From an uncultured Gammaproteobacteria bacterium (lineage in GTDB: Bacteria; Patescibacteriota; Microgenomatia; Daviesbacterales; UBA10151), in the NCBI GenBank assembly GCA_964446685.1, contig CAYUPO010000004.1, positions 20,164 to 84,163 on the forward strand: DNA of 64,000 nt. The letters run 5' to 3'. The notes beneath the pieces were generated by a model that was not told the origin of the DNA, made no database searches, and saw nothing but the letters and a program-made list of their open reading frames with translations. The translations under genes were made by a program, and so were the position numbers. Positions within the stretch are counted from its first letter, which is position 1, and each line of letters starts with the position of its first letter. Below are positions 9,687-62,003 of this stretch, piece by piece.

Positions 9687-9875
9687 TTACATTACTTTTC
9701 TTTGTCCACCTTTTCTTCCAGCAGCCCGTGCTTCATCACTACTCCATTCATGAGCAATTCCTTTTGCATGAGCAGCTTTTCCACCTTTGGAAGCGATAGC
9801 ACTTACCTGATCTGAAGACATCGCTGCAAAGCCTCGTTTACTTTTCCTTTTTTTTGATGTTTTTTTATCATCCAT
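9687..9875 (-). CDS. stress-induced KGG-repeat protein (YciG/GsiB-like)
   Basis: 62-aa basic protein with SKGGKAAH...GRKGGQ KGG-type motifs. Confidence 0.55.
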   Translation of the reverse strand: MDDKKTSKKRKSKRGFAAMSSDQVSAIASKGGKAAHAKGIAHEWSSDEARAAGRKGGQRKVM

Positions 9876-10079
9876 GATTTTTTTTCACCTCCACTCGTAA
9901 TAAAACTATAACTCGGCAATTTTAACGTCCAGTCAATTTGAGGTAAGAATCTGGCAAATGTCATCCCCCTCAATTTAGTTAAAATAATCAAAATTCTCAT
10001 CCAAACTCAGCAATTTCTTACTTTATAAGCCCGAAAGTAATAGTTGCGTAAGAATGTGCCTAAAATAGGGTAAATTAGC

Positions 10080-18078: not shown

Positions 18079-19026
18079 TTAATATCCTAGTTTAGCAAAA
18101 GAATAATCTAGCATTGCTTTGGCATCGTCTCTTCTGTTGGTTGCTCCAAGGAGTACACCCAGGACTTCGGCGTTGCCTTTTTTGGCTAGGGTTACCAGTG
18201 TTAGGCCGGCTTCGGGTGTGTAGCCGGTTTTAAGACCCATGACACCTGGATAAGTAGTCAGTAAATTGATACCTGAGTACATATCATAATCCTGATGGGT
18301 ATCAGTTATTGGCAGGTAAATATGCTCCCTTGAACTAATATTTATTACCTCAGGCCATCTTGATATCAGATACCGACTCATCAGAGCCACATCATAGGCT
18401 GTGGAAAAATGCTCGATTAACTTTGAAGGATCGCTCGGGTCATCCTCCTCCAAACCTGAAGGATTTATAAACCAGGTGTCATTCATTCCGAGAATTTTGG
18501 TCTTTGTATTCATCAGATTGATAAATTCCTCTCTACCTGAGGCAGATTGCTCGGCCAGTACTTCAGCGGCATCATTGGCCGAAACCAAAAAAATCCCGCT
18601 TAACAGCTCCTCCAGTGTCAATCGTTCGTTTTCCTTCAGCAGCATTTTATCAGGCTCCATTTCAGCTGCCATTTTTGACACAGTGTAGGTATCAGACAGC
18701 TTTTTATTTTCCAAAGCAATAATAGCAGTCATTATTTTTGTCAGCGAAGCGATTCTTTTTTTATCACGATAATTTTTCTGAAACAGTACCTGACCAGTAT
18801 TTGCTTCGACAAAGAAAGCTGACTCAGCAGATATTTCCGGAGCGGATACAAAACTACTTGCAGAGGCTTCCTTGGGAAACCAGATATTGTCAGAATATCT
18901 CATCTTGGATACACCAAGTACCGGTGAAATCAGATCTTTATTCGGAGATGCATGAAACCAAAATATCCAGACAAAAACAAACGCTAAACACCCCATAAAT
19001 CCGGCTGCACGTAGTAACCATTTCAT
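18079..19026 (-). CDS. D-alanyl-D-alanine carboxypeptidase (peptidase S11, PBP5-like), membrane-anchored
   Basis: SxxK (ASLTKIMT), SxN (SANDAA) and KTG (KTGYT) motifs. Confidence 0.85.
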   Translation of the reverse strand: MKWLLRAAGFMGCLAFVFVWIFWFHASPNKDLISPVLGVSKMRYSDNIWFPKEASASSFVSAPEISAESAFFVEANTGQVLFQKNYRDKKRIASLTKIMTAIIALENKKLSDTYTVSKMAAEMEPDKMLLKENERLTLEELLSGIFLVSANDAAEVLAEQSASGREEFINLMNTKTKILGMNDTWFINPSGLEEDDPSDPSKLIEHFSTAYDVALMSRYLISRWPEVINISSREHIYLPITDTHQDYDMYSGINLLTTYPGVMGLKTGYTPEAGLTLVTLAKKGNAEVLGVLLGATNRRDDAKAMLDYSFAKLGY

Positions 19027-20139
19027 TTACTCTCTCCTCCCGACACCCATCGGAGGGACAGTTAAAATAGTTGGTATTTCAACAGTAAATTCCCGATCTT
19101 TGTTGGTAATTCTTTCCTGCATAATAGTTCTGACGTCCTGTGTTCCCCAATAATTTGGTCCAAATATATAATGTCCACCGCAGCCATTGCCGATAAATGA
19201 GATCACACTAAACAGACTATTCTGGGAAAAATGGACCTGACTATCACAGGCAATTTCAATAATTGAGTTGCCGGAAAATCTGTTTAAAGTCACATCCCCG
19301 CCTTTTTCCTCAAGTCCGGTTAGCAAAACTAATGCTTCTCTGGAAGGCATTTCAAAAATATTATTTACAATTGAAGGAGCTCCCAACCTTTTTGGATCTA
19401 TCACAATTCCTTTACCGTTTAAATTGAGAAACTTATTGTCTGCAATCCGGGGACTTCCTCCATCAATCCAGATTGATTCCCGTAAAGCCTGTTCAAAAAC
19501 ATTATTAATAATAGCCGCCTTACCTCTTTTTATGCAAACTGAGCATTCACCCACTTCACGCAGCAGACTATCCCGGATACTAAAATTATTACCGATCTCC
19601 AGTCGCCTATAATGAGCCATCACAGCCGATGCGATCACACCATGTTTAGCTGAGATCACATTTATGTCATATGGTGAAGGAAACTGGGCATTCGAATCAA
19701 AAGTAATTGGCTGCTCTTTGGTACCAATTGCATAGAGTGTGGAAAAATGAACCTGAATCTTTTCCTTTTCATCCCAAAAGGGTTCACCTGGTCTGACATC
19801 ATGATATTCCTCTCCGATATTAATTCCGCTTTTTAAATGCCAGGGTAAAAAATCAAAATTGAACCTATCTCCTTTGGCATCAATTTTGATAACTGTTCCC
19901 GGCATTACAGTCACCACAGTACCAGGCGTTGTCCAGACATCTCCGGTGATTCTGATCTCACCAGACCAAATCTGCTTTCTGACCAAAATACCTGAAACCA
20001 TCCCATTGCTGACTTTTTTTTCCGGCAGCACCATCGCCAGACCATAAGCTAAAAGTAAATATAACCAGGTTAAAAAAATAACCACAATCAGAAAATAAAA
20101 AAACCAGTGCAATCTTGGTAAATGAAATTTTTTAATCAT
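19027..20139 (-). CDS. membrane-anchored protein with parallel beta-helix-like repeats
   Basis: N-terminal transmembrane helix; repeated NN.F/GN.I periodicity (IINNVF, IADNKF, IVNNIF, FSGNSI) reminiscent of right-handed beta-helix repeats. Confidence 0.35.
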   Translation of the reverse strand: MIKKFHLPRLHWFFYFLIVVIFLTWLYLLLAYGLAMVLPEKKVSNGMVSGILVRKQIWSGEIRITGDVWTTPGTVVTVMPGTVIKIDAKGDRFNFDFLPWHLKSGINIGEEYHDVRPGEPFWDEKEKIQVHFSTLYAIGTKEQPITFDSNAQFPSPYDINVISAKHGVIASAVMAHYRRLEIGNNFSIRDSLLREVGECSVCIKRGKAAIINNVFEQALRESIWIDGGSPRIADNKFLNLNGKGIVIDPKRLGAPSIVNNIFEMPSREALVLLTGLEEKGGDVTLNRFSGNSIIEIACDSQVHFSQNSLFSVISFIGNGCGGHYIFGPNYWGTQDVRTIMQERITNKDREFTVEIPTILTVPPMGVGRRE

Positions 20140-57007: not shown

Positions 57008-58325
57008 TGGTTATTTTCGATAAACGAATATCGACCCTTTCCATATCTCGTGGAAAAAGAGATGCTTCACGAATATTTGGCAACCCCAGGAGTAACCAGG
57101 TTAAGCGTTCCAATCCGTAAGAAAATCCACCTTCAGGCGGCATACCATATTTAAAAGCCTGCAGATACATTTCAAAGTCGTCTGGATTCATTCCCCGCTC
57201 TTTCATGATCGAAACCAGCTGATCATAATCATTTACTCTCTGGCTGCCACTTAAGATCTCAACTCCTCTAAACAACAAATCATAACTCAAGCTAAATTCC
57301 GGATCTTCCGGGTCAGGCATGGTATAAAAAGCTCTTTTAGCAGTCGGATAATGAGTAATTGTTACAAAATCAGAACCATGTTCTTCTTTAGCCCACCGAC
57401 AAATTTCCCGTTCATCCTCTGGTTCCAGATCTTTTTCTTTTCTGTTATCCCGTCCGGTTCTGTCAAAAATAATTTGCTGAGCCTCTCGCATTTTTAGTCG
57501 CGGGATAGTACCATAAGACACTGGTTCAAAACCAAAATCTTTTAATATATCTGCGCAATGCTCCTCAGCATATTTAAAAGTATTAGTTGCTACAAATTCC
57601 AGATGATCCATTAACTGAGTAAAATCAACAAATCCAAATTCACAATCCATTTGAGTGGCTTCTGACAAATGCCTGGTAGTAACTGATGGTTCAGCCCTAT
57701 ATGCATGAGCGATTGTAAACACTCTTTCAAAAGCTGGAATCAACATCTGTTTATAAAGCTGAGGACTTTGCGTCATATAGGCAGAGAATCCATAATAATC
57801 AACCCGAAACACTTCAGAACCACCTTCTGAAGCGGCAACAGCAATAGTTGGCACCACAATTTCAGTACAGTCTAACTCAGTAGCTGCTTTTCTAAATCCT
57901 TCAAGGAGTGCTGCCTGTACTTTGAAAATAGATTTTACTTTAGGATGTCTTAATGTCAGAGATCTGTTATCGAGCAAAGTTGGCAGCTGCAAATCCAACT
58001 CTTTATTTGACATATCAAAAGGCAGTTCAGCTGCTTTGGATAAAACCTCTACTTTAATGGACTGCATTTCTATTTTTCCGGTTGGAATATTTGGATTGAC
58101 CAGTTTTTCCGGACGCTCAGCAATTTTTCCGGTTATCTGAACTACATCCTGCGAACGGATATCACCCAATAAGTCTCCAGTACAAAAAACCTGAATCACA
58201 CCACTTCTATCTGCCACATCCAAAAACCCAATTTTTCCATGATCACGCCTGACCTGCACCCAGCCGGCAATTGTCACTTCCTCACCTATTTTGTTATTAC
58301 AATCTAATATTAACGTTCTTTGCAT
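56982..58325 (-). CDS. aspartate/asparagine--tRNA ligase (class IIb, archaeal-type length)
   Basis: N-terminal OB fold, motif 2 YRAE, motif 3 GMPPEGGFSYGLERL; 447 aa. Asp versus Asn specificity cannot be resolved by eye. Confidence 0.8.
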   Translation of the reverse strand: MQRTLILDCNNKIGEEVTIAGWVQVRRDHGKIGFLDVADRSGVIQVFCTGDLLGDIRSQDVVQITGKIAERPEKLVNPNIPTGKIEMQSIKVEVLSKAAELPFDMSNKELDLQLPTLLDNRSLTLRHPKVKSIFKVQAALLEGFRKAATELDCTEIVVPTIAVAASEGGSEVFRVDYYGFSAYMTQSPQLYKQMLIPAFERVFTIAHAYRAEPSVTTRHLSEATQMDCEFGFVDFTQLMDHLEFVATNTFKYAEEHCADILKDFGFEPVSYGTIPRLKMREAQQIIFDRTGRDNRKEKDLEPEDEREICRWAKEEHGSDFVTITHYPTAKRAFYTMPDPEDPEFSLSYDLLFRGVEILSGSQRVNDYDQLVSIMKERGMNPDDFEMYLQAFKYGMPPEGGFSYGLERLTWLLLGLPNIREASLFPRDMERVDIRLSKITNGKDKKSV

Positions 58326-58355
58326 ACAAGCAATTGTACCTTTTCAGGCTCAGAT

Positions 58356-58385
58356 TTGACAAGGATCAGAAGTTATGTTTAAAAT
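58356..58385 (+). promoter_or_regulatory. sigma70-like promoter TTGACA-17/18 nt-TAAAAT
   Basis: TTGACA at 58356-58361 and TTAAAAT at 58379-58385. Sits upstream of a ~125-nt leader ending in the hairpin/T-run at 58496-58520. Confidence 0.45.
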
Positions 58386-58495
58386 ACCCAAATAACCATG
58401 AAAACTTGGACTAACAGTTTTTTTACTTACTTTACCTTCCTCAAGGAGGGGGCTGTTTAATGTCTTAAAAGACACCAAGTCTAAAGACAATAGAA

Positions 58496-58520
58496 GCCTC
58501 CCAAACGGGAGGTTTTTTTT
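58496..58520 (+). terminator. terminator/attenuator hairpin GCCTCCC-AAAC-GGGAGG + T8, 22 nt upstream of a strong RBS
   Basis: First of three near-identical copies (see 59265-59289 and 60729-60752). An upstream complementary element ggagggggc (58454-58462) could form an alternative pairing. Confidence 0.5.
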
Positions 58521-58562
58521 GATCTTTTTTTAGAAAAATAATAAAGAAAGGAGGATAAAAAT

Positions 58563-58760
58563 ATGACACAAATTGAAGTTATAAGAACTGATTTATTACG
58601 ACCAAATCATGCTTTAAGAACAATTGAAGAGATAAGTCAGAGACCTGATGCTATCGCTTCAAAAGAAAGAATAGAACGTCTGAACGCTTCACCCAAAGCA
58701 AGAGCAGCAGCAGAAGCCAGAGCAGTAGCTCTTTTAAAAGCCTTAACAAAAAGGCCATAA
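58563..58760 (+). CDS. small hypothetical protein (65 aa)
   Basis: Preceded by AAAGAAAGGAGG at 58543-58554. Confidence 0.45.
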   Translation: MTQIEVIRTDLLRPNHALRTIEEISQRPDAIASKERIERLNASPKARAAAEARAVALLKALTKRP

Positions 58761-58798
58761 AAAAGTAAAAAAATAATTAAAGAAAGGAGGAAATAAAT

Positions 58799-59041
58799 AT
58801 GAGTGAAAGAAAAAATAGACCTATGTATTCAGGATTAGCAGGTGTCAGACCAGAACCAGTAAATTTTGGGCCCGCTAATCATGTGGTTGAAACCACCGCG
58901 GAAGTAAAAGCTACAGAAAAAAAGTTAGTAACTTATTCTGCCGAAGATCAGATTCGCGCATTAACCAGGATGACAATTGCTGCTGGATCAGATAGAGACA
59001 CTAGCAAACCAAGAACTAAAAATAATTGGACAGGACATTAA
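58799..59041 (+). CDS. small hypothetical protein (80 aa)
   Basis: Preceded by AAAGAAAGGAGG at 58779-58790. Confidence 0.45.
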   Translation: MSERKNRPMYSGLAGVRPEPVNFGPANHVVETTAEVKATEKKLVTYSAEDQIRALTRMTIAAGSDRDTSKPRTKNNWTGH

Positions 59042-59047
59042 AAATTT

Positions 59048-59235
59048 AACGATGGGAGTGCTACATGTGCTCCCATCAATAAATGATAATTTGACAAAAA
59101 CTATTACTGTTGTGTATCATTCCTCAAGTATGCAAAATACAGTTGCTTTAAAACAGACAAATATTATTAGTATTAGCCTCCTTCTCGTGGTGGTGCTCCT
59201 TGTGAGCATTTCAACCGGGAGGGCTTTTTTTAGCT
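59048..59235 (+). ncRNA. candidate structured non-coding element between small genes
   Basis: Perfect hairpin gatgggag-tgctacatgtg-ctcccatc at 59051-59077, then agcctcc...ccgggagggc + T7 at ~59176-59230. Shares GGAGTGCTACATG with the nrdJ repeat array. Confidence 0.3.
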
Positions 59236-59264
59236 AAAAACTAAAAAAAGTAAGGAATACCTAA

Positions 59265-59289
59265 GCCTCCCGAATGGGAGGTTTTTTTT
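59265..59289 (+). terminator. terminator/attenuator hairpin GCCTCCC-GAAT-GGGAGG + T8
   Basis: Second copy of the hairpin; 12 nt upstream of AAAGAAAGGAGG at 59302-59313. Confidence 0.5.
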
Positions 59290-59321
59290 GTTCAAAAATA
59301 TAAAGAAAGGAGGTGTTACAA

Positions 59322-59612
59322 ATGAAAAAAATTGAAAATGGAAATATACCTGGAGTAAGAATGGATAAACAAGATGCTCCAAGAATTAGAGCAAGATCAG
59401 GAGGAGTTGTTTATGGAACACATTTCGTTTACGACTCTGATGGGCCAATCTTGCCCGTTAGTGGTACAACTGAACGTTTTAATCCAAACCACACAAATTG
59501 GCAGGCAGTTGTTGAAATGATTGGCCAAAATCCTAACATGGATATTGAAACTGCAAAAAGAAAATCAATTCAATATGCTGCAGAAAACAGGACAGAATTT
59601 GGAACAAAATAA
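59322..59612 (+). CDS. small hypothetical protein (96 aa)
   Basis: Start taken at MKKIENG, directly after the conserved RBS; the ORF track begins at 59313. Confidence 0.45.
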   Translation: MKKIENGNIPGVRMDKQDAPRIRARSGGVVYGTHFVYDSDGPILPVSGTTERFNPNHTNWQAVVEMIGQNPNMDIETAKRKSIQYAAENRTEFGTK

Positions 59613-59692
59613 GGAGAATAATAATGTGTTTTATTAAACTGGAGGAGTTCAAAAGCAACTCCTCCAGAAAAAAATAAATTATATAAAAAAAT

Positions 59693-60040
59693 ATGTTAAG
59701 TATCGAAAAAATATTACCAGATGGAGAAAAAGAATCTAATATTAATGATTCGTACTCTTTTGTGGATGAAATTAGAAATATAAATCTTGAAGAATATAAA
59801 GTAGAAATTTCAACACGTAAAAGAACTGTACAAATAGTAATGCGGAGACCTCTTCTTACTCAACTGGATGAGAGATTAAGGTTATTAAAAACTTTATACC
59901 CTGCAGCAAGAAGAACTAAATGGGGCAAGAAAATACCAAATCCAGAATATAAAAAAGCCAGTTTACCAATACAAGAATACAGGAAACAACTTTCCCGCGT
60001 CCAAAAAGCAGACAGATTAACTTTAACTGGAAAAATTTAA
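59693..60040 (+). CDS. small basic hypothetical protein (115 aa)
   Basis: ORF with no recognised motif; 4-bp overlap with the next ORF, so translational coupling is possible. Confidence 0.4.
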   Translation: MLSIEKILPDGEKESNINDSYSFVDEIRNINLEEYKVEISTRKRTVQIVMRRPLLTQLDERLRLLKTLYPAARRTKWGKKIPNPEYKKASLPIQEYRKQLSRVQKADRLTLTGKI

Positions 60041-60041
60041 T

Positions 60042-60518
60042 ATGACAAATAAAGACGTATTTTTAGTTAAATACCCTGATCCAGGATTCGGAATCACCAA
60101 CACACATCCGATTATACGTACTGAAGGATTAGCAACATGTATTGCAACTGGTGGTATTTTTTCAAATAAAACGAATGAATCTTCTTTATTTATGATCCAC
60201 CAACCTGATTATGCCCATTCTTCACATATCTCTATACTACAGGAAATACTGATAAATTCACATGGTAAACTAATTGTTTTTGCCAAAATTCCTGATCAGC
60301 TAAAGCCACCTTACACAGTAAATATTGATCTTCAAAATTCTGAAACTTATGCAAAAGCTCTTGAAATATTTCTAAAAAACTTAAAAGAAGGTTTTCCTAA
60401 ATTTGATATCAACTTTCTTCCTTATGGTTCACGAAAAAACCCAACACTCTACTCATATGCCGAGATTGATCTTATTCAAAACTTAGCCATAACAGATTAC
60501 GGCTCAGTTATTATTTAA
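60042..60518 (+). CDS. hypothetical protein (158 aa)
   Basis: ORF with no recognised motif. Confidence 0.4.
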   Translation: MTNKDVFLVKYPDPGFGITNTHPIIRTEGLATCIATGGIFSNKTNESSLFMIHQPDYAHSSHISILQEILINSHGKLIVFAKIPDQLKPPYTVNIDLQNSETYAKALEIFLKNLKEGFPKFDINFLPYGSRKNPTLYSYAEIDLIQNLAITDYGSVII

Positions 60519-60654
60519 ATATTTGACTCAAAAATAAATACAAATTATAATATTTTTATGTGTTCCTATATTAGTTTTTCTATTATTATTGCCCCCATTA
60601 AAATCGCTAGATTTCAATCTCCGATTATTGTTAGCCCTAAGGGGCGCTATTTTG

Positions 60655-60752
60655 GGAGGCTTTCTATTTATTAGAAATTAGTACTTAGAAATGAGCGAAG
60701 CTCCTGCTTCGCAGTTAGAAATTTTTAAAGCCTCCCAAATGGGAGGTTTTTT
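60655..60752 (+). promoter_or_regulatory. TTAGAAATTAG-family repeat followed by the third GCCTCCC-AAAT-GGGAGG + T7 hairpin
   Basis: ttagaaattagtacttagaaatgag-cgaagctcctgcttcg-cagttagaaat, then gcctcccaaatgggagg at 60729-60745. An upstream ttgggaggctttc is complementary to the hairpin's 5' arm. Confidence 0.5.
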
Positions 60753-60907
60753 TGTGGAAAGGAATTGTCATTTCGAGCGAGGAGCGAGAAATCTCTAGAT
60801 TAAAACCAATGTTTATTCCTAGTAAATCTTAAGATCTCTCACTTCCGTCAGGAAGAAAGCTCTGCTTACTACGTTCGAGATGACGTTAAAAGAAAGGAGG
60901 TGTAAAA

Positions 60908-61171
60908 ATGGAAATACCTAAACAACGAGTTATTAATCTTAGCGCGAGTACTTGTCCTGATATGGATTGGACAAATAAACATGATCCGAATGCAATTTTA
61001 TATTTAGATTTTAAAAAACCAGGGTTAAGCTCAGTCATTGTCGATTTGACAAACACAGAACATGTAGCAAAAAATTATTTAAAAGCGATGTCTGATCCAA
61101 GTGTCCTATTATATTTAACACCGACAGTATTGTGGAGAAATAAAACAGTTAAATATCCTGCCCGGATTTAA
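60908..61171 (+). CDS. small hypothetical protein (87 aa)
   Basis: Preceded by AAAGAAAGGAGG at 60889-60900. Confidence 0.45.
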   Translation: MEIPKQRVINLSASTCPDMDWTNKHDPNAILYLDFKKPGLSSVIVDLTNTEHVAKNYLKAMSDPSVLLYLTPTVLWRNKTVKYPARI

Positions 61172-62003
61172 GATTTAGTTCTTTTTCAGCGCTTTTTCCC
61201 TGGACTACGATTTCCAGGAATCTTTTTTCGTCCAGTCCTGAGCTGCCGATTATCAATGCTGGCTTATCTTCTGGAACGTCTTTCAGACGGTTATAACATA
61301 TTAGTGTCATTCTGGCTTGTCCAGAATCAACCTTAGTCACAACAGATTGCTTCGTCGTTCCTCCTCGCAATGACGTTGGGAAAAATACTTTTTTACCCGC
61401 TTTAAAACCAATGTCTTCAGGTAAAAGTGTGGTTTTTACATTGCCAAAATTATCAATCCACCAGATAGCTTTTGGAAGATGCGGAACATTTTTTAGAGGA
61501 TATTTTTCTGAAGGTATTTCTATTCCTTCAGCCAACCAGGCAGCTACCCGAGGTAAAAATTCAAAACTCCGAAATTGAGTATGTGAAATATGCTCTACTA
61601 AATCTTTTGATACTATCCCCTGCTGTTTCAGATATTTCATTACTGTCGGAATATCCATCACATTAATATGATTGACTATTCCCAGTTTTTTAACCAAAGA
61701 CAAAGATAATCCATCAACTGATATTACAACCAATGTTTCTTTGTAATGAAAAAAACCAAATGGAGTCCCATTGGGCCATTTCTTTCCGGATTTATGGCGA
61801 GGAGCTACATTAACTAAAATAACCCCTTTCTTGCCCGCTGAAGCATCCAGCATATCTATCAGATTTCCTGCCGCTTCCAGATCTGCGTCCCAACCATTAA
61901 CACCGATAGTCGTAACATTGCATTCAAACAAAGTCGACAACCGGGTGGTTGAACGACCAAGAGCATTATCATCTTTACAATCAGTTATCAAAGTTACAAA
62001 CAT
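61149..62003 (-). CDS. SAM hydroxide adenosyltransferase family protein (DUF62; fluorinase/chlorinase-like SAM hydrolase)
   Basis: N-terminal MFVTLITDCKDDNALGR matches the DUF62 M..i.L.TDFG.(D) opening; 284 aa. Confidence 0.65.
   Translation of the reverse strand: MFVTLITDCKDDNALGRSTTRLSTLFECNVTTIGVNGWDADLEAAGNLIDMLDASAGKKGVILVNVAPRHKSGKKWPNGTPFGFFHYKETLVVISVDGLSLSLVKKLGIVNHINVMDIPTVMKYLKQQGIVSKDLVEHISHTQFRSFEFLPRVAAWLAEGIEIPSEKYPLKNVPHLPKAIWWIDNFGNVKTTLLPEDIGFKAGKKVFFPTSLRGGTTKQSVVTKVDSGQARMTLICYNRLKDVPEDKPALIIGSSGLDEKRFLEIVVQGKSAEKELNLKSGQDI

Follow-up and report, generated by a model that had tools for sequence, protein, structure and literature searches.

A tandem array of candidate leader-peptide attenuators for phenylalanine, leucine and isoleucine ahead of small genes in a Microgenomates bacterium

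Introduction

Leader-peptide attenuation is the oldest known RNA-based sensor. In the enterobacterial attenuators (pheA/pheST, leu, ilvGMEDA/ilvBN, trp, his, thr) a leader open reading frame (ORF) with a run of codons for the cognate amino acid is combined with overlapping 1:2, 2:3 and 3:4 helices, and with a stop codon placed so that the terminating ribosome masks segment 2. Bacteria of the candidate phyla radiation (CPR) have tiny genomes with few regulators and obtain amino acids from their hosts, and to our knowledge next to nothing has been learned of how they regulate their genes. Our full-text search of the literature returned no paper on leader-peptide attenuation in CPR bacteria or Patescibacteria. 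Here we describe a block of small genes located at positions 58356-61171 of a 64,000-nucleotide stretch of contig CAYUPO010000004.1 (GenBank assembly GCA_964446685.1, positions 20,164 to 84,163 of the forward strand), deposited as an uncultured Gammaproteobacteria bacterium and assigned by GTDB to the Daviesbacterales (Patescibacteriota, Microgenomatia). The whole stretch is called here the window, and its coordinates are used throughout; features are on the + strand unless indicated. We consider it likely that the block is an array of three independent ribosome-mediated attenuators that respond to the charging of tRNA-Phe, tRNA-Leu and tRNA-Ile.

The three units share with the enterobacterial attenuators the leader ORF with its cognate codon run, the overlapping helices and the position of the stop codon. 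Besides, in related genomes the Phe-type unit is found with 3-deoxy-D-arabino-heptulosonate 7-phosphate (DAHP) synthase and the Ile-type with a citramalate/isopropylmalate synthase. They differ in that the leader ORFs have no Shine-Dalgarno sequence and start 6-13 nt past the -10 box, in that all four segments are built of GGAGG/CCUCC words, in the presence of arrays of three specificities and in their CPR host. Furthermore, the genes that follow in the window (hereafter the cargo) code for hypervariable, non-biosynthetic small proteins, the first of which are poor in the cognate amino acid. Among the Rfam families only Phe_leader (RF01859) matched all three units, and this with permissive thresholds at which the rest was noise; the scores of 35.0, 29.8 and 28.1 bits were below the gathering threshold of 55, and the likeness lies mainly in the terminator and the UUUACCUUCC stretch. 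No Rfam family reached threshold either on the units of the window or on those of eight related loci. The possibility of tRNA or other known RNA genes within the leaders was discarded.

A second system is close in other respects. Canestrari et al. (10.1101/834739) describe a mycobacterial cysteine "ribulon" made of leaderless polycysteine small ORFs, in which the stalled ribosome unmasks the next ribosome binding site (RBS). Both systems have a leaderless sensory first cistron, a stall at a single amino acid that flips the RNA, and several loci that would respond together. The mycobacterial control so described is translational and concerns cysteine metabolism, whereas here an intrinsic terminator follows the leader.

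The block contains three promoter-to-terminator units

A pattern scan of the window for GCCTCCC-N4-GGGAGG detected three hairpins on the + strand, at 58496-58512, 59265-59281 and 60730-60746, all of them in the block and none elsewhere in the 64 kb, where 0.01 would be expected by chance. A run of seven or eight T follows each one directly, and the third with its T-run spans 60730-60753. The 12-mer AAAGAAAGGAGG, which acts as putative RBS, has four copies in the window (58543, 58779, 59302 and 60889), again all inside the block, separated by 8, 8, 8 and 7 nt from the ATG of the genes that we call p65, p80, p96 and p87 after the length of their products. Three G-rich elements, GGAGGGGGC (58445-58453), GGGAGGGC (59217-59224) and GGGAGGCTTT (60654-60663), precede the hairpins, and each lies at the 3' end of a short ORF in which a CT-rich segment further upstream pairs with it. 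An earlier note on this DNA had reported the three hairpins, the four identical binding sites and the G-rich complements; all were found again at these positions, the third hairpin being one base away from where it had been placed.

We found three sigma-70 promoters (58356-58385, 59091-59120 and 60523-60551), each with 11 of 12 matches to the consensus and each 140-200 nt ahead of its hairpin. The earlier note had seen the first, which is indeed present although its spacer is of 18 nt instead of 17, and had missed the other two as well as the leader ORFs. Since there are two additional promoters, each hairpin closes its own promoter-to-terminator unit, and the block is made of three such units (A, B and C) followed by small genes and not of a single operon with three internal hairpins. 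The gap from terminator to cargo RBS or ATG is of 12-42 nt; the promoter scan found no promoter-like site between terminators and cargo genes, and the gap is also too small to hold one.

Leader ORFs of three classes

Short ORFs without Shine-Dalgarno sequence begin 12, 9 and 6 nt past the -10 box of units A, B and C. In unit A the promoter (TTGACA-18-TAAAAT) is followed by the Phe-type leader ORF MKTWTNSFFTYFTFLKEGAV at 58398-58460. The promoter is conserved in two related loci, L001 and L002 in our numbering, and the ORF and its frame are kept in these and in about 18 further units. The promoter of unit B (TTGACA-18-TATCAT) precedes the Leu-type leader ORF MQNTVALKQTNIISISLLLVVVLLVSISTGRAFFS at 59130-59237, a member of a family of 53 units (alignment A2), and that of unit C (TTGACT-17-TATAAT) precedes the Ile-type leader ORF MCSYISFSIIIAPIKIARFQSPIIVSPKGRYFGRLSIY at 60558-60674, with counterparts in L001 and L002 of the form M.S.F.IIASIIINSPV.GRYFGRLS... 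As the ATG is only 6 nt past the -10 box, the unit C mRNA is probably leaderless. The CT-rich segments (CCTTCC, AGCCTCC and GCCCCC in A, B and C) lie within the leader ORFs, and the codons for the cognate amino acid are placed over them or just ahead: FFTYFTF finishes at CCTTCC, LLLVVVLL begins at AGCCTCC and IIIAPI is located over GCCCCC.

For comparison we retrieved 49 loci around homologues of the asparaginyl-tRNA synthetase (AsnRS) and scanned metagenomes with a 19-nt motif of the second unit type, which gave 74 loci with about 45 true units. The resulting set contains 85 non-identical units from Microgenomates genomes and metagenomes, 53 of class B, 18 of class A, 11 of class C and three unclassified. 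A different amino acid stands out in each class. Leaders of class A are 21% Phe, those of class B 27% Leu (with Val and Ile about 8-9% each) and those of class C 23% Ile. A promoter with at least 9 of 12 matches, ending mostly 6-13 nt before the leader ATG, was present in 58 of 70 related units, which suggests that the leader ORFs are usually leaderless or nearly so. The repeats of ATT/TTA in class C could have been read as frames ambiguous between Ile and Leu, an option that we rejected as the promoter-proximal ATG, both in the window and in L012, sets the frame to that of Ile.

The stop codon has a regular position. In all 53 Leu-type units the leader ends 9-15 nt past the core of segment 2, whatever the frame (7-13 nt in the three units of the window). 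Class B ORFs read segment 1 in one common frame, as Leu-Leu, and the spacing from there to segment 2 is not restricted to multiples of three. Thus, segment 2 is translated as LGGLFR before the stop in 40 units and as GRSF or GRAF before the stop in 10, the window among the latter, and the stop position is fixed because the sequence TTTTTAGRTAA provides stops in two frames. This pattern suggests that translation of the leader, rather than its peptide product, is what matters, and would be hard to reconcile with a functional peptide.

The three unclassified units (L115 119-238, - strand; L088 1013-1131, - strand; L122 664-783, + strand) carry the same terminator, with leader peptides outside the Phe, Leu and Ile classes, such as VNKVYRLLLKLLLPPKREGFLRNLK. 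Either additional specificities or wrongly assigned frames may account for them.

Alternative RNA structures and covariation

Each unit is built of the same four segments, namely a CT-rich segment 1, a segment 2 that resembles GGGAGG, CCTCCC as segment 3 and, as segment 4, GGGAGG followed by the U-run. In unit A, segment 1 (CCTTCC, 58435-58440) and segment 2 (58445-58453) form a 1:2 hairpin, and the arrangement TTTACCTTCC-N4-GGAGGG is nearly invariant in the class A alignment (A1). Segments 3 and 4 make the terminator AGAAGCCTCCC-AAAC-GGGAGG plus eight T (58492-58520), and segment 3 (58496-58502) has segment 2 as a possible alternative partner. In unit B, the region 59175-59250 comprises segment 1 (AGCCTCC, 59175-59181), an inner hairpin P1a, segment 2 (59217-59224) and a hairpin P2 at about 59224-59250 that holds the leader stop codon, as delimited by folds and by covariation on A2; the pattern scan places its terminator, AAGCCTCCC-GAAT-GGGAGG plus eight T, at 59263-59289. 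In unit C, segment 2 (60654-60663) is fully complementary to segment 3, AAAGCCTCCC (60727-60736), and the terminator AAAGCCTCCC-AAAT-GGGAGG plus seven T (60727-60753) was found both by the pattern scan and in the folds. The RNAfold energies for the 1:2 region, the 2:3 region and the terminator were -8.7, -23.6 and -15.8 kcal/mol in unit A, -20.4, -20.0 and -14.3 kcal/mol in unit B, and -20.9, -31.4 and -15.2 kcal/mol in unit C.

We counted base pairs on the MAFFT alignment A2 of the 53 class B units. In the terminated conformation 84.5% of the cells were paired, a value reached by none of 500 shuffles and above every slid control, with 86% for the 1:2 helix and 88% for the terminator. Hairpin P1a has five pairs with both sides changed. 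The P2 hairpin, which lies between segments 2 and 3, exists in both conformations and brings the two segments together, also covaries: its pair 142-154 is AU in 25 units, GC in 15 and GU in 9. The competing antiterminator, the 2:3 helix, is 82.5% paired, and the pair beside its invariant core is compensatory (UA 34, CG 9, UG 6, other 4). In L036 the minimum-free-energy fold has P1 and the terminator, and on masking of segment 1 it becomes the antiterminator GGGAGGUCUUU:AAGACCUCCC.

The 9-nt flanks of segments 2 and 3 gave further support in class A, where they are more complementary within than between units (9 of 500 permutations). Examples of such flanks are TTGCTA/TAGCAA in L008 and, in the class C unit of L012, GGTTGTTTGGCG/CGCAACAAACC. 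The same permutation was uninformative in class B, with nearly invariant flanks, and not significant in class C, with 10 units.

Cognate amino acids are spared in the first cargo proteins

We compared the composition of the non-redundant first downstream proteins of up to 140 amino acids, 13 of class A, 33 of class B and 8 of class C. Phe makes up a fraction of 0.009 in class A, versus 0.038 in B, 0.025 in C and 0.050 in the long-ORF background (Mann-Whitney p = 3.6e-5 for the depletion in A). The Leu fraction is 0.052 in class B, versus 0.080 in A, 0.088 in C and 0.103 in the background (p = 1.7e-3 for B), and that of Ile is 0.027 in class C, versus 0.071 in A, 0.065 in B and 0.077 in the background (p = 4.3e-4 for C). 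Among all 20 residues, the cognate one shows the strongest depletion in each class, and none of 20,000 label permutations reached the observed diagonal. Two proteins of the window fit the pattern well, p65 having no Phe, Tyr or Trp and p96 a single Leu in 96 residues. This sparing is an independent line in favour both of the specificity assigned to the sensors and of the proposal that the first cargo protein would be made in that specific shortage.

Similar biases have been described. Fasani and Savageau (PMC4209129) report that biosynthetic enzymes are low in their own product amino acid, and an article on Chlamydia (PMC3937554), an obligate symbiont, reports that tryptophan content dictates which proteins are made in starvation. 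The proteins examined here are likewise low in the amino acid that would be scarce. In contrast to the biosynthetic enzymes, the bias is found here in tiny ORFan proteins and is tied one-to-one to the specificity of the attenuator upstream.

The units in related genomes

The earlier note had proposed checking whether the block is present in related genomes. A gene for a class II AsnRS or aspartyl-tRNA synthetase (AspRS) flanks the block, and it matches best with Daviesbacteria-like metagenome-assembled genomes of the Microgenomates, the group from which the window comes. In L001 and L002, the closest of the genomes compared, AsnRS is 93% identical and the three units are found without change of order between the AsnRS/AspRS gene and a SAM_HAT gene, and most of the small genes located between the units differ from those of the window. 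Many further loci of Daviesbacteria and other Microgenomates carry such units, frequently as arrays, for example in the order B-C-A in L104 and L123.

The genes found downstream provide some clues. Phe-type units are located directly upstream of DAHP synthase, which opens the pathway to the aromatic amino acids, both in L014 and L007 (Pfam E-value 1e-59) and in L104 (1.9e-83), and in L014 dehydroquinate synthase comes next. A partial ORF of L123 that falls into one BLAST cluster with the L104 enzyme seems, judging from coordinates and not from a Pfam scan, to come after the Phe-type unit there; the automated first-ORF scan called no first ORF for this unit. An Ile-type unit precedes a synthase of the citramalate/isopropylmalate type (HMGL-like plus LeuA_dimer) in L012, and a Leu-type unit precedes an operon including an M20 peptidase in L013. 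Most units precede ORFs of 60-130 amino acids that belong to no known family and have little similarity among them; 103 of 195 downstream ORFs were singletons.

Some observations on these loci deserve mention on their own. In L049 a Leu-type attenuator (9765-9922, - strand) is located directly upstream of a full-length RelA/SpoT homologue with HD_4, RelA_SpoT and TGS domains, and the expression of this enzyme of guanosine tetra- and pentaphosphate ((p)ppGpp) metabolism may be gated there by the charging of tRNA-Leu. In nine loci (L013, L014, L017, L036, L049, L064, L069, L104 and L123) the ATG comes directly after the U-run of the terminator. The 3' arm GGGAGG could double there as Shine-Dalgarno sequence, coupling transcriptional and translational control; the window differs from those loci in having the separate AAAGAAAGGAGG sites. 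L036 also contains a flavin mononucleotide (FMN) riboswitch (18910-19034, - strand, 90.7 bits), that is, a related Microgenomates locus uses classical riboswitches too.

Proposed mechanism and alternative explanations

Four of the features that define a leader-peptide attenuator are present in the three units: a 5' leader ORF that follows the promoter, codons for one amino acid at segment 1, the position of the stop and, according to the folds and the pairing in the 53 units, mutually exclusive 1:2, 2:3 and 3:4 helices of which the last is an intrinsic terminator. From the sequence we infer conditional read-through, ribosome stalling and induction of the cargo by a specific shortage, as follows. 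With the cognate amino acid plentiful, the ribosome would run to the stop and cover segment 2, so that the 3:4 terminator forms and transcription ends. With no translation at all, segments 1 and 2 would pair first and 3:4 would again terminate. When the cognate aminoacyl-tRNA is scarce, the ribosome would stall at Phe, Leu or Ile codons located within segment 1 and immediately ahead of it, leaving segment 2 free to form the 2:3 antiterminator, and the RNA polymerase would enter the cargo genes, which are p65 and p80 for unit A, p96, p115 and p158 for unit B and p87 for unit C. The first cargo protein, low in the sensed residue, could still be made in that shortage. The terminator/antiterminator layout suggested in the earlier note is thus strengthened by the covariation of the antiterminator pairing and the absence of promoter-like sites before the cargo genes. 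Its statement that the block could not be placed in any described system does not stand for the mechanism, which resembles leader-peptide attenuation of the trp/phe/leu/ilv type.

Several results weigh against this interpretation. The CCUCCC:GGGAGG cores are invariant and give no covariation signal, so that the 2:3 helix is supported by one strongly compensatory pair and by the flanks. In a full-length minimum-free-energy simulation of stalled ribosomes the terminator was kept at most positions of unit A, and units B and C gave mixed results. This footprint-masking simulation is crude and ambiguous, the terminators being thermodynamically too stable, and we do not count it as support; with terminators so stable the switch would have to be kinetic, i.e., co-transcriptional. 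L129 and L131-L133 seem to have a 5' untranslated region of about 45 nt and not a leaderless start. T-rich sequence easily yields hydrophobic peptides. In the window p87 is only mildly poor in Ile (5 of 87 residues), and p115 and p158 are not poor in Leu. Finally, none of the Leu-type units in the 85-unit set was seen to lie immediately ahead of a gene for leu or ilv biosynthesis, and in the window the cargo genes (p65, p80, p96, p115, p158, p87), which have no known family, are not recognisable as genes for the cognate amino acid.

The very stability of the terminators, which are retained in the full-length folds, would suit units that are stand-alone genes for hydrophobic peptides (membrane peptides or type I toxins) or small RNAs, ending in constitutive terminators, with the downstream genes expressed independently. 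The peptides are indeed hydrophobic, and the Leu-type one, the N-terminus of which is fairly conserved (MSK..DLR+.EIL), resembles a single transmembrane helix. We find this distinctly unlikely, given that the C-terminus of the peptide shifts with the frame and RNA sequence and stop position remain constant, that the hairpins between segments covary and the antiterminator pairing is compensated, and that either 12-42 nt with no promoter-like site precede the cargo RBS or ATG or, in many loci, the ATG comes right after the U-run. Nor would it explain why Phe-type units precede DAHP synthase or why the cargo is depleted in the cognate residue specifically. A type I toxin or a functional membrane peptide in particular was rejected, as the C-terminus is not conserved and switches with the frame between LGGLFR and GRSF/GRAF. 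Leader peptides could also serve to sense a general stress of translation, by antibiotics or slow ribosomes as in erm, vmlR or bmrCD, and no specific amino acid. Cargo that is mostly unrelated to amino-acid biosynthesis, the RelA/SpoT homologue behind one Leu-type unit and the segment words and terminator common to the three classes would all be natural under such a response. However, a different single amino acid is enriched in the leaders of each class, the cargo of each class is poor in its own cognate residue and not in the other two, and the biosynthetic synthases follow units of the matching type (DAHP synthase for Phe, and in one case the citramalate/isopropylmalate type for Ile), which makes it improbable in our opinion.

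Antitermination might alternatively be set by a factor acting in trans, such as a TRAP-, PyrR- or LicT-like protein, an uncharged tRNA in the manner of a T-box, or a free 30S subunit on segment 2. All four segments resemble Shine-Dalgarno or anti-Shine-Dalgarno sequences and could bind 16S ribosomal RNA or one another, and some relatives are not strictly leaderless. Yet a factor in trans has no need for a conserved ORF, a promoter-adjacent start, codon runs over segment 1 or a stop past segment 2; no other known leader family was detected, and the region 58300-61250 gave no Rfam T-box match with E-values up to 10. We regard this possibility as very improbable. The last option is that the block, as the earlier note had contemplated, is a mobile islet derived from phage or plasmid, its repeats being leftovers of cassette duplication with no regulatory role. 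The cargo is hypervariable between genomes with 93% identical AsnRS, a 5' cassette is common to non-homologous genes, and an insertion resembling a miniature inverted-repeat transposable element (MITE) is present. Against it, the chromosomal site is conserved in relatives and the units across many genomes, PHROG and PADLOC searches were negative (for the six proteins the best PHROG E-value was 0.093, none significant), and the cargo is under purifying selection, with a ratio of nonsynonymous to synonymous substitution rates (dN/dS) of 0.2-0.56. Besides, the Leu-type unit motif had a single match, by chance, in the 2.9 million viral contigs of IMG/VR, a search that did not extend to plasmid collections. 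Such an origin seems to us extremely improbable, and amino-acid-specific attenuation by translation of the leader is the reading that we keep.

The cargo genes

The block fits the other description given in the earlier note, a co-regulated small-protein system, and with the exception of a fold assigned to p158 its products have no known family, as had been noticed there. None of the six had matches above threshold in Pfam, PHROGs, PADLOC or NCBIfam. The cargo genes are real: the dN/dS values, obtained against few homologues, were 0.19-0.24 for p87, p96 and p158 and 0.42-0.56 for p65.

Unit A is followed by p65 (58563-58760; with its RBS, 58543-58760), with homologues in L002 (92% identity) and L001 (39%), and p80 (58799-59041; 58779-59041 with the RBS), with a homologue in L001. 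A hairpin without T-run, GATGGGAG...CTCCCATC (59051-59077), marks the end of this operon, and a similar one is found in L001 and L002. For p87 (60908-61171; 60889-61171 with the RBS) the L001 homologue is 59-60% identical by tblastn and MAFFT, with dN/dS of 0.24. No other homologue appeared in 5.8 billion proteins, and the look-up of the exact sequence gave no record. The cargo evolves or turns over far faster than its flanks, with identities to L001 of 39% for p65 and 60% for p87, compared with 93% for AsnRS. The sequence AAAGAAAGGAGG-N8-ATGACACAAATTGAA (58543-58577, also in L001 and L002) is a 5' cassette common to several non-homologous small genes, whose products begin with MTQIE; it could be a recombination site for cargo swaps between strains.

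In unit B, p96 (59322-59612; 59302-59612 with the RBS) is followed by a hairpin, CTGGAGGAGTT...AACTCCTCCAG (59639-59667, -18.5 kcal/mol in RNAfold), after which there is a run of A and not of T, and then by p115 (59693-60040), whose translation is a basic protein, and p158 (60042-60518), both without the 12-mer AAAGAAAGGAGG. A word-indexed search with p96, as with p87, returned the query alone, and a profile built from three homologues of p96 brought in two further ones. The homologues of p96 (L128, L129, L131-L135) are all behind a Leu-type leader, with dN/dS of about 0.2. Actually, the cargo of unit B is a conserved operon in which the Leu-type leader is followed by p96, a variable middle gene and p158, complete wherever the contig is long enough (L128, L129 and L133). 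By eye, the C-terminus of p115 resembles that of the middle protein of 215 amino acids found in other contigs. In L128, L129 and L131 the operon has a pseudouridine synthase gene as neighbour, to which L128 and L131 add a divergent Aminotran_4 gene. One p158 homologue (in the contig of P0004) is directly upstream of a thiamine pyrophosphate enzyme of the acetolactate-synthase type, a neighbourhood that hints at a link to branched-chain amino-acid metabolism.

The product of p158 has three homologues among 1.84 billion representatives, and T27, T32, C33, H53, P55, D56 and H59 are invariant in the four sequences. With the alignment of these four, AlphaFold2 gave a model with a mean confidence (pLDDT) of 86.6; that from the single sequence (34.6) was unusable. 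Foldseek assigned the model to the CheD/NTAN1/YfiH-like fold, the best matches being CheD (2f9z_C, E-value 8e-5, TM-score 0.53, probability 1.0) and NTAN1 (6a0e, E-value 2e-4), followed by YfiH and CNF. A sequence search of the PDB with the p158 profile gave one chance hit only. The predicted fold is shared with CheD, NTAN1, YfiH and CNF1, and GLATC...H.PD, with its invariant Thr, Cys and His, resembles their catalytic motif, so that p158 is probably a Cys-His amidohydrolase. It differs from CheD and NTAN1 in its low identity (13% at most), in the absence of Pfam or NCBIfam CheD matches and in being part of an attenuator operon and not of a chemotaxis or N-degron locus.

A repeat element in the block

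A repeat that begins with GTCATT[GT]CGAG has four copies in the window, at 60767-60884, 31747 (+ strand), 31909 (- strand) and 61374 (- strand); a degenerate pattern for GTCATT...CGAG missed them and a looser regular expression found them. The first copy is an inverted repeat of 118 nt, GTCATTTCGAGCG...CGTTCGAGATGAC (RNAfold -40.7 kcal/mol), between the terminator of unit C and the RBS of p87. At this position the repeat is absent from L001 and L002, where a small gene takes its place. The copy has the appearance of a MITE-type insertion into the regulated leader.

The SAM_HAT-like ORF that comes next (61149-62003) has an in-frame insertion of 20 amino acids (within PTSLRGGTTKQSVVTKVDSGQARMT, about 61315-61374, - strand) that is absent from the orthologues of L001 and L002. 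The insertion coincides with a copy of the repeat (GTCATTGCGAGGAGG...), and here the element appears to have been absorbed into the coding sequence.

Implications

The mechanism in cis that we propose is old. What appears to be new is the logic of the regulon, in which small proteins spared in the cognate amino acid are matched to the specificity of the attenuator and organized in tandem cassettes. If so, CPR bacteria would use leader-peptide attenuation in the form of a cassette that can be reused, in at least three specificities (Phe, Leu and Ile), and its targets would reach beyond the few biosynthetic genes that they retain to RelA/SpoT, to a peptidase-containing operon and above all to many tiny ORFans. 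The match between sparing and sensor would mark these small ORFans as starvation-specific, and dozens of families without known function would gain a predicted condition of induction. The three RNA motifs, which are not in Rfam, could be added to annotation pipelines.

As a tentative and rather doubtful extension, the tandem attenuators might constitute a modular, amino-acid-specific "hunger response" of an ultra-small episymbiont, each cassette firing when one host-derived amino acid is short and releasing fast-evolving small proteins poor in that same residue. If this is true, the host, or else the proteome of the cell itself, could be the target of the released proteins, for example with p158 as an amidase similar to NTAN1 or CheD that feeds a regulated proteolysis restoring the supply. 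It would also be a regulon of a type that has not been described among attenuators, and for the Microgenomates the first circuit of gene regulation to be worked out.

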